From the sequence record SRR2962707_4322: a DNA stretch of 32,625 nt. One strand, written 5' to 3'. Below, piece by piece: positions 6,770 through 15,776 of this stretch (position 1 is its first letter; the number at the start of each line of letters is the position of its first letter). The notes beneath the pieces are model-generated. The model was not told the origin of the DNA, ran no database searches, and saw only the letters and a list, made by a program, of their open reading frames with translations. The position numbers and the translations under genes are program-made.

Positions 6770-7648
6770 CTAGCGTTTGACGGCGGATTTAAGCTCTGTT
6801 TCATCAAGCCGGGCTTTGAGGTCGTCGACGAAATTCTGAGGCAGATAGCGCTCACGGAGCGTGATCAGCATGTCGCCGAATTTTTCTTCAATCTCGTCAC
6901 CGAAAGACTGAAAGATTTCGGCCAGATAGATTTCGTGGCGGATAAGGCTGTTGATCAGTTCGACAACCGGGGGATTGCGGGTATGAATGCCGTATCCATC
7001 CTCGCGCAGGCTGGCGGTCAGGCCCTCCGTATGATCGCAGCCGATGCAGAACAGGTGATTCGAATGTCCGACATGTGTGCCGCGGCCTTCGTGGAGGAAG
7101 ACCTTGGTGGATTTGCCAAAGGTGTATTTTTTAACGTCGTCATCGGTGCCGAAAATGATGATGACGATTTCGACGCCGCGATCAGACGCGCGTTTAAGGG
7201 CATCGGCATGGATCTCGACGGCACCTTTGTTGCCCTTGATCCAAATCCGATTATCGGCATTTTCGATCAGTTCCCCGATCTTTGCATGGACCTGCGCCAG
7301 ATTGGGGATCGACCAGACATAGCTCAGCTCTTCAGGCTGTTTGATTCGTCCGAGGGCGCGTGCAACGGACGCACACCTGTCAGCCGTGCCTTCGGCAATT
7401 CGCTGAAAGAGGGTTTCTGGATCCACAGGCGCGAAGCGGACAGGATTTTCCGAAACCGGCTGAACCGCTTCCTTGCGCAATAGATTATCCAGTGCGCTAT
7501 AGGCGTTTGCACGCGGCACGCCGGCACGCTTTGCGACGTCATATGCCGTTGCGGGGTGTCCTTCCATGAGGGCGATAAAGCATCGGCTTTCATGGTGGGT
7601 GAAGCCCAGCGCGTGGAGTTCGTTGATTAAGGTTTCCTGGTCAGCCAT
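6770..7648 (-). CDS. TrmB family transcriptional regulator
   Basis: N-terminal wHTH LGFTHHESRCFIAL...ATAYDVAKRAGVPRANAYSALDNL, PVRFAPVDP; C-terminal effector-binding domain (LIENADNRIWI...LKRASDRGVEI); SD AGGGAGG. Confidence 0.92.
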   Translation of the reverse strand: MADQETLINELHALGFTHHESRCFIALMEGHPATAYDVAKRAGVPRANAYSALDNLLRKEAVQPVSENPVRFAPVDPETLFQRIAEGTADRCASVARALGRIKQPEELSYVWSIPNLAQVHAKIGELIENADNRIWIKGNKGAVEIHADALKRASDRGVEIVIIIFGTDDDVKKYTFGKSTKVFLHEGRGTHVGHSNHLFCIGCDHTEGLTASLREDGYGIHTRNPPVVELINSLIRHEIYLAEIFQSFGDEIEEKFGDMLITLRERYLPQNFVDDLKARLDETELKSAVKR

Positions 7649-7729
7649 GTGGCTTCGCTGCCTCCCTTGAGCTGGTTGTCTTTATCACGCCCGCGTCAGA
7701 GTAACACAGCTCGCAAAAGAAATAATCCA

Positions 7730-7894
7730 GTAGCTTGCCCGTTCTCTACGCAAGGCATTTGACATCAAATATGGGTGTGAAAATCCATAAAACACAATAA
7801 TTACAAGTAATTGCAGATTTGATAAACAATTTTGTAGACAAGATATAAACAATATTGATAGGTTCGAAAAAATAGAAGTTATAAAAGCAACTAC
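7730..7894. promoter_or_regulatory. AT-rich divergent promoter region with several dyad elements
   Basis: GTAG-N12-CTAC (7730-7749), GAAGTT-N8-AACTAC (7875-7894), ATTTGA-CA-TCAAAT containing TTGACA (7757-7770), AATTAC-AA-GTAATT (7799-7812), direct repeat ATAAACAATwTTG at 7822 and 7845. Confidence 0.5.
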
Positions 7895-13043: not shown

Positions 13044-13082
13044 CGCTCTCCACCAATCCCGGTTGAACTGACGGAAGCCACC

Positions 13083-15776
13083 ATGACCAAGAATAGCCTC
13101 AATACCTGCCGCAAGCTCGAAGTCGATGGCGAGACGTACCACTATTACAGCTTGAAAGCTGCCGAAGATGCAGGGGCGGGGCAGGTCATGAAAATGCCGC
13201 GCAGCCTGAAAGTTCTCTATGAAAACCTTCTCAGGCATGAAGACGGGATCGGCATCACCGAAGACGATCTCATGGCATTTACGGGACGCAGCCGGGAAAT
13301 TGGGTGCGGTGCCGAAGTGCTGTATCACCCGTCACGGCTGATGCTGGTCGATTCATCCGGTGTGCCTCTTCTTGCCGATCTGGCTGCCTTGCGTGAAGCG
13401 ATGCTGCGTAATGGCGGTGATCCGATGACGATCAATCCGGCCATTCCGTGCGAACTCGTCATCGATCACTCGGTGATGGTCGATTTCCAGGGCACAGCCG
13501 ATGCGCTGGATAAAAACATGGATCTTGAATACAGCCGTAACGGCGAGCGGTATCAATTCCTGCGCTGGGCCGAAAAAGCCTTCAAGAATTTCAAGATCGT
13601 GCCGCCGGGAACGGGGATCTGCCACCAGGTCAATCTCGAAGCACTGGCGCGTGGTATCTGGATCGATAAATCCGAAGGCCGCACGATGGTGGCCCCGGAA
13701 ACGCTGCTGGGAATGGACAGCCATACCCCGATGATCAATTGCCTCGGCATCCTGGGCTGGGGTGTGGGTGGTCTGGAAGGCGGCGCGGCGATGCTGGGCA
13801 TGCCGGTATCCATGATCTTCCCCCGCGTTGTCGGGTGCAGACTGAGCGGCGCCCTGAAGCCCGGCGTGACAGCAACGGACATGGTCCTGACGTTGACCCG
13901 TCAGTTGCGTGAATATGGCGTTGTCGCGGCCTTCGTTGAATTTTTCGGACCCGGCGTTGGAAATCTCAAGCTTTCGGATCGCGCGACCCTTGCTAACATG
14001 TCGCCTGAGTACGGGGCGACGATGGGGTTTTTCCCGATTGATGAGGAGATGCTCAGCTACCTCGAGAAAACCGGGCGGGGGGAAAACGTGCCGCTGATCC
14101 GGGCCTATGCTCAGGAACAGGGGCTTTGGCATGATCCGGATGCGCCGCAGCCGTCCTACAATGAAGTGGTCGACTTCGACTTATCGTCCGTGGAGCCGAG
14201 CATTGCCGGCCCGAACCATCCGCACAATCACACGCCGCTTCCCAAGGCCAAATCCAAGTTCGCGGATACGATCATTCCGTCCTGTGCGACGTTGCCGGAT
14301 GATGGTGTCTCCGTTGAGGGCGCGGCATGGAAACTGAACCACGGCGATATCGCGATTGCCGCGATTTCCAGCTGCACCAATACGTCCAACCCGGCGGTGA
14401 TGATTGCGGCTGGATTGCTCGCACGGAATGCCGTCGAGCGTGGTCTGTCCGTCAAACCGTGGGTCAAAACCTCGCTGACACCCGGATCACGCGTCGTCGC
14501 CGATTATCTCAAGACCTCGGGGCTGCAGGAGTCGCTGGATCAACTCGGGTATCAGGTTGCCGGTTTCGGCTGTACGACCTGCATGGGGAATTCCGGGCCG
14601 CTGGCGGCGAATGTCGAAGCGGCGGTGAAGGCCAACGACGTCGCCATGGTTGCCGTGCTCTCGGGGAACAGGAACTTTGATGGGCGCATCCATCCACTGG
14701 CGCGGGCAAATTTCATCTGCTCTCCGCCCCTGGTCATTGCCTATGCCCTTGCGGGAAGCATGCGCGTGGACCTCACGACGGAACCTCTCGGGCACGACAA
14801 GGCCGGGAACCCTGTCATGCTGTCCGATATCTGGCCGGACCCCGCTGAATTGAGCGAGATTATCGATACGGTCCTTGTCGCCGAACGCTACACCAGTATT
14901 TACGCGGGGATGTTCGATGGTGACGCCAGGTGGCGGTCTGTCGATGGCGGGGACGGCACGCTATTTGAGTGGCCGGACGATACATACATGAAACGCCCGC
15001 CGTTCTTTAACGACATTGAACCGGCACTGCCGGCGATCGGCGATATACGCGGTGCCCGGCCGCTGGCGATGTATGGTGACGGGATCACCACGGACCACAT
15101 TTCTCCCGTCGGGACGATCACGGAAAGTTCGGCCGCAGGCCAGTACCTGATCGATCAGGGCGTGAAGCCGGCGGATTTCAATTCGTTCGCGGCCAGACGG
15201 GTCAATCATGACGTCATGATTCGCGGGACGTTCGCCAATATCCATATCCAGAACCAGATGGTGCCGGACCGGAAGGGCGGCTGGACACGGCATGAACCAA
15301 GTGCCGAGATCGTTCCCGTCCATGAAGCCGCCCAGCGCTATCGCGATGCCGGGGTGGACCCGATCATCATTGCCGGGCGTGAATACGGCCAGGGATCGTC
15401 ACGGGACTGGGCCGCGAAGGGAACCCGGATACTGGGTGTGCGCGTCGTCGTTGCTCAGGGGTTCGAGCGGATCCACCGTTCCAACCTCGTCGGCATGGGG
15501 GTGCTGCCGCTTCAGTTCGAAGAGGGGACATCCTGGACGTCTCTGGGGCTGGACGGCACGGAAACCTATGACATTACCGGGATTGATCTCATGCGCGGCC
15601 CGCGATCAATGCTTGATTTGCAGATCAACAAAGCCGATGGAACCAGTTTCAACGTCCCCGTTTTGTGCCGTCTGGATACACCGCTTGAGTTCCTGTACTT
15701 CCTGAACGGCGGGATCCTTCATTACGCGGTTCGTAACGAAATTGCACCTGAGCAGGCGAACGCCTTGCCGGCCTGA
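13083..15776 (+). CDS. acnA: Aconitate hydratase AcnA-like protein (divergent substrate motifs)
   Basis: VIDHSV, GICHQVNLE, DSHT, SCTNTSNP and GCTTC (three Fe-S Cys), SGNRNFDGR, TTDHISP, GSSRDWAAKG, FERIHRSNL. Confidence 0.9.
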   Translation: MTKNSLNTCRKLEVDGETYHYYSLKAAEDAGAGQVMKMPRSLKVLYENLLRHEDGIGITEDDLMAFTGRSREIGCGAEVLYHPSRLMLVDSSGVPLLADLAALREAMLRNGGDPMTINPAIPCELVIDHSVMVDFQGTADALDKNMDLEYSRNGERYQFLRWAEKAFKNFKIVPPGTGICHQVNLEALARGIWIDKSEGRTMVAPETLLGMDSHTPMINCLGILGWGVGGLEGGAAMLGMPVSMIFPRVVGCRLSGALKPGVTATDMVLTLTRQLREYGVVAAFVEFFGPGVGNLKLSDRATLANMSPEYGATMGFFPIDEEMLSYLEKTGRGENVPLIRAYAQEQGLWHDPDAPQPSYNEVVDFDLSSVEPSIAGPNHPHNHTPLPKAKSKFADTIIPSCATLPDDGVSVEGAAWKLNHGDIAIAAISSCTNTSNPAVMIAAGLLARNAVERGLSVKPWVKTSLTPGSRVVADYLKTSGLQESLDQLGYQVAGFGCTTCMGNSGPLAANVEAAVKANDVAMVAVLSGNRNFDGRIHPLARANFICSPPLVIAYALAGSMRVDLTTEPLGHDKAGNPVMLSDIWPDPAELSEIIDTVLVAERYTSIYAGMFDGDARWRSVDGGDGTLFEWPDDTYMKRPPFFNDIEPALPAIGDIRGARPLAMYGDGITTDHISPVGTITESSAAGQYLIDQGVKPADFNSFAARRVNHDVMIRGTFANIHIQNQMVPDRKGGWTRHEPSAEIVPVHEAAQRYRDAGVDPIIIAGREYGQGSSRDWAAKGTRILGVRVVVAQGFERIHRSNLVGMGVLPLQFEEGTSWTSLGLDGTETYDITGIDLMRGPRSMLDLQINKADGTSFNVPVLCRLDTPLEFLYFLNGGILHYAVRNEIAPEQANALPA

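Follow-up and report, generated by a model that had tools for sequence, protein, structure and literature searches.

The window analyzed here, a 32,625-nucleotide stretch from sequence record SRR2962707_4322, contains at positions 6770 to 15776 a TrmB-like regulator gene and, divergent from it, six co-oriented genes that encode an Fe(II)/2-oxoglutarate (2OG) dioxygenase, the three subunits of a tripartite tricarboxylate transporter (TTT), a C-C lyase of the isocitrate lyase (ICL)/phosphoenolpyruvate (PEP) mutase superfamily, and an aconitase. The seven genes are a real, conserved unit. On balance we find it probable, though not strongly so, that the six genes form an operon for the catabolism of a tricarballylate-like acid taken up from outside. 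The acid would be oxidized, isomerized, and cleaved, the dioxygenase doing what TcuA does elsewhere. Tricarballylate or an alkyl-substituted analog would be the leading substrate candidate, but that tricarballylate itself is the substrate seems rather unlikely.

Gene identities in the window were assigned from a table of open reading frames (ORFs) together with Pfam and NCBIfam equivalog models. The regulator (292 amino acids; 6770..7648, minus strand) matches the TrmB helix-turn-helix domain PF01978 at 65.4 bits. A 266-bp, AT-rich intergenic region (7649..7914; 38% guanine-cytosine (GC) content) separates it from the operon, all of which lies on the plus strand. The first operon gene encodes the dioxygenase, a TauD/TfdA-family protein of an FrbJ-like subfamily (349 amino acids; 7915..8964; PF02668, 101.9 bits). 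The transporter genes follow, for a divergent member of the TctC periplasmic substrate-binding proteins (9054..10112; PF03401, 46.8 bits), the small membrane subunit TctB (10147..10626; PF07331, 45.2 bits), and the large membrane subunit TctA (10623..12137; PF01970, 406.5 bits). A PrpB-like lyase (294 amino acids; 12159..13043; PEP_mutase, 186 bits; ICL, 57.4 bits) and, as the last gene, an AcnA-type aconitase paralog (897 amino acids; 13083..15776; Aconitase, 496.4 bits; Aconitase_C, 128.1 bits) complete the set. The gaps between the six genes are 89, 34, −4, 21, and 39 bp, tctB and tctA overlapping by 4 bp. These ORFs and Pfam matches confirm the arrangement given in an earlier note on this DNA, which had described six co-oriented genes divergent from a TrmB regulator. 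The same note had reported the window to lack a citrate or methylcitrate synthase, PrpD, PrpF, and malate synthase, and none of the 26 window ORFs scanned matched any of these families.

A search of 401 alphaproteobacterial genomes with the lyase returned eight with a match of at least 57% identity (G001 at 93%, G387 at 70%, and six at 57–59%), the rest being at or below 46%. All seven genes are present in G001, a Rhodospirillales metagenome-assembled genome (MAG), where they are spread over three contig pieces. One piece (L001) carries the dioxygenase through the aconitase at 73–96% amino acid identity, with TctB lowest, a second (L208) carries the regulator (85.6%) divergent from the start of the dioxygenase (84.8%), and a third (L080) holds the end of the aconitase. 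Both flanks differ between G001 and the window. The genes beyond the regulator are not those of the window, and the window's downstream neighbor was not found within 1.5 kb after acn. G001 is an incomplete MAG, and "not found" in it refers, here and below, to the queries used. Four public runs were also searched, one of which may be the window's own source. In run X4, a single contig of 7818 letters corresponds to window positions 7074–14891 with 266 differing letters, and shorter contigs from runs X2 and X3 bridge the regulator–dioxygenase, dioxygenase–tctC, and tctA–lyase–acn junctions; such contigs show gene linkage, not transcription. The earlier note had named a lack of joint conservation as grounds for giving up its proposal. 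The recurrence of the block in G001 and in the X4 contig shows that the gene set is kept together in very close relatives.

The dioxygenase is a clear member of the TauD/TfdA family, its PF02668 score standing against a gathering score of 27 bits and the H-x-D…H triad and the arginine being kept. Residues H149, D151, H288, R303, and R307 are invariant across 26 relatives; by analogy with TauD, we take the first three to be the iron triad and R303 to be the 2OG-binding arginine. The protein has no match to TauD sensu stricto (NF007104) at E <= 1e-3 and reaches no equivalog cut-off, the best being trimethyllysine dioxygenase (TMLD) at 25.3 bits and TmpA at 18.1 bits. Just two of its 583 relatives (E <= 1e-3) exceed 64% identity (95% and 81%) and none has a functional name, and its neighbors in the ESM Atlas carry generic TauD/TfdA cluster names only. 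The nearest solved structures are 7n7v, labeled "Predicted hydroxylase" (1.9e-41), and FrbJ (5eqn, 9e-39), both about 30% identical to it. Equating 7n7v with DfmD was considered and dropped, as PMC9296572 describes DfmD as BBOX-like and never crystallized. A recent acquisition of the regulator and dioxygenase by horizontal transfer, as low GC might indicate, was likewise rejected: the dip is confined to the intergenic region, and the dioxygenase gene has a GC content of 56.5%, similar to that of its neighbors.

Relatives of the dioxygenase recur beside PEP-mutase-family genes. Such a gene is present in 31 of 77 dioxygenase-family genome loci, far above the copy-number expectation from about seven PEP-mutase-family genes in a 3.2-Mb genome, and in 25 of the 77 it is no more than 500 bp away. 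In 16 of these loci, the dioxygenase has a family III CoA-transferase no farther than 700 bp away. The closest relatives (55–61% identity; dioxygenase at ~10001) are found in 15 loci (L002, L005–L007, L009–L015, L017, L023–L025), divergent from a PEP-mutase-superfamily protein encoded just upstream. The catalytic loop of this partner reads EDQL(F/Y)PKRAHYHK, in which alanine stands in place of the lyase cysteine, and among PDB entries the partner matches oxaloacetate acetylhydrolase best; another 22 partner matches have K(K/R)CGH loops. Pfam searches in five loci per partner group identified a 2-hydroxyacid dehydrogenase, an enoyl-CoA hydratase, a CitE-like lyase, and PrpD as neighbors, which are carboxylate and acyl-CoA contexts. 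G001 itself contains a further case (L207, G001:C110, ~7035–10038), in which a minimal module pairs an FrbJ-like dioxygenase (29% identical) with a downstream ICL-family lyase paralog (42–44% identical), a LysR gene being divergent from the dioxygenase. The recurrent pairing with PEP-mutase/ICL genes therefore ties the dioxygenase family functionally to ICL-superfamily enzymes. In the window, the dioxygenase appears to have been joined onto a TTT–lyase–aconitase core.

The transporter is a TTT system by all three of its subunits, TctC, TctB, and TctA being present, adjacent, and above their gathering scores. Among solved TTT binding proteins, TctC matches 25hk best (3.4e-22), and 5oei at 5.8e-19.

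On sequence grounds, the lyase is a paralog distinct from canonical PrpB. It scores below both PrpB cut-offs (TIGR02317, 291.4 against 354.4 bits; NF008455, 247.6 against 353 bits) and well below that of the ICL AceA (TIGR01346, 68 against 275.9 bits), where the match of this 294-residue protein covers profile positions 148–261 of 527. In the PDB, it matches E. coli PrpB best (1mum, 2.9e-57), with 2,3-dimethylmalate lyase (3fa3, 2.2e-51), petal death protein, and further PrpB enzymes also among the top matches. The catalytic loop, EDQSFPKRCGHYE, aligns to the 1mum loop and contains K-R-C-G-H, whose cysteine is the general acid/base. The protein may in fact start at an ATG six codons in. In the computed alignment to 1mum, the lyase has Phe, Ile, and Pro at what we take to be the positions and roles of E. 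coli PrpB F186, L234, and P236; the Ile and Pro fall at two ICL/PrpB selectivity positions. PMC11982470 describes PrpB enzymes as lacking ICL activity, gives the ICL loop as KKCGH, and reports that selectivity for 2-methylisocitrate or isocitrate is influenced by two positions, L521 and S523 in A. fumigatus PrpB, which are F and T in ICL. The pocket residues would thus favor a pyruvate-forming, 2-substituted substrate over plain isocitrate, which argues against unsubstituted tricarballylate.

The company of this lyase raises another kind of chemistry. Biosynthesis of FR-900098 combines a PEP mutase, the aconitase FrbA, and the hydroxylase FrbJ, whose substrate is a phosphonate, and the cluster could echo it by handling a phosphonate analog of a tricarboxylic acid (TCA)-cycle acid. 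FrbJ is the sole named relative of the dioxygenase among solved structures, and a PEP-mutase-superfamily protein and an AcnA-type aconitase are both present. However, the lyase reaches only 141.8 of the 319.55 bits for PEP mutase and 111.3 of the 374.4 bits for phosphonopyruvate hydrolase, and its loop has the lyase-type KRCGH cysteine. No phosphonopyruvate decarboxylase, homocitrate-synthase-like, or isocitrate-dehydrogenase-like gene is found among the scanned ORFs, and the TTT importer points to carboxylate uptake. We therefore consider a phosphonate pathway very improbable.

Beyond the genomes, at least 80 lyase loci were found in metagenomes, with 55–74% identity among the matches listed. 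In a lyase tree of 106 rows, from which matches shorter than 240 amino acids had been dropped, the matches form one clade of 89 rows (SH-aLRT support 100) with the paralogs outside. Neighborhoods were determined by tblastn with window and locus proteins, hits with less than 30–40% query coverage being dropped, and by Pfam on selected loci. Members of the clade adjoin enzymes that could oxidize or isomerize a tricarboxylate. In L116, a PrpF-like gene and the lyase come after TcuA (552.7 bits against a cut-off of 369), and PrpD is divergent; in L115, TcuA, PrpF, and PrpD gave no tblastn match and only the lyase did, while its mirrored ORF layout suggests the same set. TcuA also adjoins the lyase in L162 and L174, the lyase occurs with a TauD enzyme and PrpD in L118 and L157, and on many soil contigs a PrpD-family gene follows it. 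Among the 80 metagenome loci listed, the neighbors are PrpD-family genes (27 loci), TTT genes (14), Amidohydrolase_2 (7), GntR (7), aconitase (3), PrpF (2), TcuA (2), and any TauD (1). An aconitase, PrpD, or PrpF neighbor is present in 31 of these 80 loci, and in 24 of the 41 that are at least 5 kb long.

The core of the window operon itself recurs as well. In L114 (G387), L121, and L134, tctABC is divergent from a lyase–aconitase operon, preceded by GntR in L114 and L134; L114 has a second lyase between lyase and aconitase, and L121 additionally has PrpF, whose family comprises aconitate or methylaconitate isomerases. L158 reads GntR–lyase–aconitase. Across these core loci, identity to the window is 57–74% for the lyase and 54–65% for the aconitase, and in L114, L121, and L134 it is 58–65% for TctA and 49–54% for TctC, a TctC homolog in the same range also adjoining the lyase in L169.

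None of these core loci carries a dioxygenase, and it could be that the TTT–aconitase–lyase core handles an already oxidized acid (citrate, isocitrate, cis- or trans-aconitate, or 2-methylcitrate) with the dioxygenase as an auxiliary enzyme. The latter may then widen the substrate range, oxidatively remove a substituent, or act on an unrelated co-regulated compound. Besides the dioxygenase-free cores, three of them with TctC homologs at 49–54% identity and one supplying PrpF, the absence of the FrbJ-like type from the 80 lyase loci listed agrees with this. However, the operon begins with the dioxygenase gene, which lies 89 bp from tctC and keeps this place in G001 and in the X4 contig. Its family is also paired with PEP-mutase genes above copy-number expectation, and other members of the lyase clade likewise carry an oxidant, be it TcuA or a TauD enzyme. 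We regard an auxiliary dioxygenase as unlikely.

The aconitase exceeds the AcnA cut-off (TIGR01341, 1146.2 against 945 bits) and falls short of that for AcnD (TIGR02333, 807 against 1419.85 bits), and the window has no PrpF to accompany an AcnD. Aligned to IRP1 (2b3x), it keeps the three [4Fe-4S] cysteines and the Arg/Ser motifs (SCTNTS, GCTTCMGNSG, GNRNFDGR, and GSSRDWAAKG). G001 has a second AcnA, 52% identical, which scores higher on the AcnA model (1348 bits). In a tree of 13 aconitases, the lyase-linked proteins (window, L001, L114, L121, and L158) form one clade (support 100/98), and the second AcnA copies of G001, G387, G007, G303, and G130 group at 93/96; L134 is not resolved in this tree. 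Nine columns separate the lyase-linked aconitases from the second copies, for example, RRGNH to RRVNH. By these measures, the aconitase is a dedicated paralog and not the housekeeping AcnA. Loss of a substrate-binding arginine, at the column aligned to IRP1 R699, was also considered and rejected, because this column varies in the second AcnA copies too and is therefore uninformative.

These scores can also be read as ordinary central metabolism, that is, a second AcnA and a methylcitrate-cycle lyase beside an unrelated transporter and dioxygenase. The aconitase is above the AcnA cut-off with the checked motifs intact, the best matches of the lyase are PrpB, and G001 has a separate PEP-mutase-family gene above the PrpB cut-off (368.3 bits) that likewise lies outside any recognizable prp cluster. 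However, the lyase of the operon stays below both PrpB cut-offs, and no prpC or prpD (or acnD or prpF) is near it among the scanned ORFs. All matches to 2-methylcitrate synthase in G001 are below cut-off (best, 342 against 421.3 bits). The TTT genes lie inside the operon, between dioxygenase and lyase, and the aconitase and lyase clades co-occur, apart from second AcnA copies and paralogous lyases. Such a coincidence of ordinary enzymes is, in our view, quite unlikely. An ICL above cut-off was not found in G001, nor was TcuA (best, 32.7 against 369 bits). Malate synthase is present in G001, G387, and G007, and an ICL above cut-off in none of them.

Returning to the catabolic operon for a tricarballylate-like acid, we infer the chemical steps and the substrate class, as we do the regulation, from the observed gene identities, the paralog status of the enzymes, and the conservation of the block and its sub-modules. 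TctCBA would import an exogenous tricarboxylic acid. The FrbJ-like dioxygenase would then oxidize its saturated, tricarballylate-like skeleton by hydroxylation or possibly desaturation, giving a citrate-, isocitrate-, or aconitate-type intermediate. The AcnA paralog would move or add the hydroxyl through dehydration and rehydration to form a 2-hydroxy-3-carboxy isomer, and the lyase would cleave this by a retro-aldol reaction to a 2-oxo acid and succinate or a succinate analog. From the two PrpB-like pocket residues, the 2-oxo acid would more likely be pyruvate than glyoxylate. The dioxygenase would thereby take the role that the flavoenzyme TcuA may have in other operons of the same lyase clade, such as L116 and L174. 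The TTT–aconitase–lyase core may be older, with the dioxygenase and the TrmB-like regulator as lineage-specific additions. The earlier note had proposed an import-oxidize-isomerize-cleave logic. The lyase clade lends it indirect support, in that its members in many other loci adjoin TcuA or TauD enzymes and/or an AcnA paralog, PrpD, or PrpF. The core also occurs dioxygenase-free.

Several observations weigh against this proposal. The complete gene set is seen only in very close relatives, and neither the FrbJ-like dioxygenase nor TrmB occurs among the 80 metagenome lyase loci listed. Because the cores of L114, L121, L134, and L158 do without a dioxygenase, the hydroxylase may be an add-on rather than an obligatory first step. 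The only characterized relatives of the dioxygenase, FrbJ and 7n7v, hint at no carboxylate substrate. If tricarballylate were oxidized to citrate or aconitate, the product could feed straight into the TCA cycle, which leaves no obvious need for a dedicated lyase. The PrpB-like pocket would fit a methyl-branched acid, and we know of no natural saturated precursor for one. The window's nearest lyase subgroup has 15 rows (support 99), with 11 rows of another group, of which five adjoin a canonical ICL and six lie on uninformative contigs. Finally, the ORFs of the other loci come from a simple in-house script, and many of the contigs are short.

Other lyase loci have contexts of their own. In L123, L124, L126, L128, and L130 (67–71% identity), which belong to the lyase subgroup closest to the window, the lyase is convergent with a second, more distant ICL-superfamily gene. 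In L128 (9013–11231), the sole locus of the five that was scanned with Pfam, this is a canonical ICL (343 bits on PF00463), and genes resembling arsenic-resistance genes precede the lyase. The commonest soil context, seen in L152 and L183 (~8200–14900), combines GntR/UTRA, the lyase, a PrpD-family gene, GST_C_3, and a ModA-like SBP_bac_11 protein, with a D-2-hydroxyacid dehydrogenase in addition in L152; to our knowledge, it does not correspond to a described pathway.

Its divergent orientation suggests that the TrmB-like protein regulates the operon. The regulator matches PF11495 (Regulator_TrmB) at 32.9 bits over profile positions 1–80 of 233 only and reaches 58.6 bits on TrmB equivalog models, against a cut-off of 650. 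The divergent intergenic region is a candidate operator and promoter region. It contains a 13-nt direct repeat, ATAAACAAT(T/A)TTG, at 7822–7834 and 7845–7857, the copies being 23 nt apart, which may serve in regulation. No consensus sigma-70 site was found in 7649..7914. Across the whole window, scans for sigma-70-like promoter and terminator consensus sequences returned fewer sites than in shuffled sequences and none stood out, and an Rfam scan gave zero family matches.

The earlier note did not recognize this combination of genes as a described pathway, and neither does the literature we searched. Within full-text articles, with subscription-only papers and bioRxiv supplements falling outside the search, we found no description of a TauD-family enzyme together with TTT, a PrpB-like lyase, and an aconitase, and no 2OG oxygenase acting on tricarballylate. 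The isomerize-then-cleave logic is known; a dioxygenase in the lead, the lack of a synthase, and a modular family arranged around the lyase are new variations on it. A bolder version, which we hold to be unlikely, is that the dioxygenase is the first Fe(II)/2OG oxygenase to act on a free tricarboxylate, hydroxylating or desaturating tricarballylate or an alkyl-tricarballylate in an O2-dependent, TcuA-free route. The lyase clade would then mark a widespread operon family that swaps its oxidant (TcuA, TauD, or FrbJ-like) and its isomerase (AcnA paralog, PrpD, or PrpF) around a common cleavage.

FrbJ-like dioxygenases and many alphaproteobacterial PrpB/ICL paralogs are mostly without an assigned substrate, and the operon supplies a testable hypothesis for both, namely that saturated or unusual tricarboxylates are oxidized, isomerized, and cleaved to pyruvate or glyoxylate and succinate. 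TctC, the dioxygenase, the aconitase paralog, and the lyase are the proteins of choice for assay. If the hypothesis is true, the operon would represent a new way in which polycarboxylates enter central metabolism, and a 2OG oxygenase would have replaced the flavoenzyme TcuA non-orthologously. Annotation would also benefit for a lyase clade that, with at least 80 loci, is common in metagenomes from soil, marine, and saline habitats.

The remainder of the window contains other genes. Upstream, 1–6497 holds envelope and secretion genes, including a FecR-domain protein, a ShlB/FhaC-type two-partner-secretion transporter, a 399-amino-acid ORF with no family match, and a 648-amino-acid TPR–secretin fusion. 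Downstream, convergent with acn, 15864–18515 (minus strand) encodes an 883-amino-acid fusion in which about 370 N-terminal residues without a Pfam match precede a 2Fe-2S ferredoxin domain, a pyridine-nucleotide-disulfide reductase domain, and a rubredoxin-reductase C-terminal domain. This ferredoxin/flavoprotein fusion was considered as a member of the unit and rejected, since it was not found after acn in G001 or in the other loci. A small cyclic nucleotide (cNMP)-binding protein follows it (18546–19043, minus strand). At 19201–22215, a biosynthetic-type arginine decarboxylase (646 amino acids) is divergent from an arginase-family protein; the latter is probably an agmatinase, and the pair would be a putrescine route. 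Further on, three genes at 22347–25479 (plus strand) encode a CitE/HpcH-like C-C lyase, which falls short of the cut-offs for both citE (187.9 bits) and RipC (150.6 bits), a TauD dioxygenase of the canonical type (177.4 bits on PF02668), and a family III CoA-transferase (408.9 bits). This cluster may follow a similar logic at the CoA-ester level, activating, hydroxylating, and cleaving a dicarboxylate.

The operon shares steps with several known systems. Like the glyoxylate shunt of AceA and malate synthase, it places an aconitase before an ICL-superfamily cleavage, but its lyase is PrpB-like in the KRCGH loop and in the Ile and Pro of the pocket and scores poorly as an ICL. The late steps of the 2-methylcitrate cycle (PrpD and Acn, or AcnD and PrpF, then PrpB) likewise lead from a (de)hydratase through a 2-hydroxy-3-carboxy acid to a KRCGH lyase. 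Here, however, the window lacks PrpC, PrpD, PrpE, and PrpF, the lyase does not reach the PrpB cut-offs, and the aconitase is of another type than AcnD; the acid would be imported by TTT rather than built from propionyl-CoA, and a 2OG dioxygenase heads the operon. The dimethylmalate route of nicotinate fermentation also hydrates or isomerizes and then cleaves, and its lyase structure 3fa3 is a strong match. It uses a LeuCD-like hydratase, whereas the operon has a full-length AcnA type, a tricarboxylate-type transporter, and, with its dioxygenase, an aerobic character. FrbJ and 7n7v are the closest solved structures to the dioxygenase and have the H-x-D…H triad and the R303/R307 pair in common with it, but at about 30% identity and, as to the cluster, in phosphonate biosynthesis as opposed to the catabolic carboxylate context here. 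In Salmonella, work on TcuRABC reportedly showed that TcuA oxidizes tricarballylate to cis-aconitate. The window system, with no match to NF006130 in its ORFs and without TcuA, TcuB, or TcuC, is not a member of that system but may work like it. In both, a saturated tricarboxylate would be taken up and oxidized to a TCA-type acid, and TcuA lies beside homologs of the lyase in L116, L162, and L174. In the window, the oxidant would instead be the Fe/2OG dioxygenase, followed by the aconitase and the C-C lyase.

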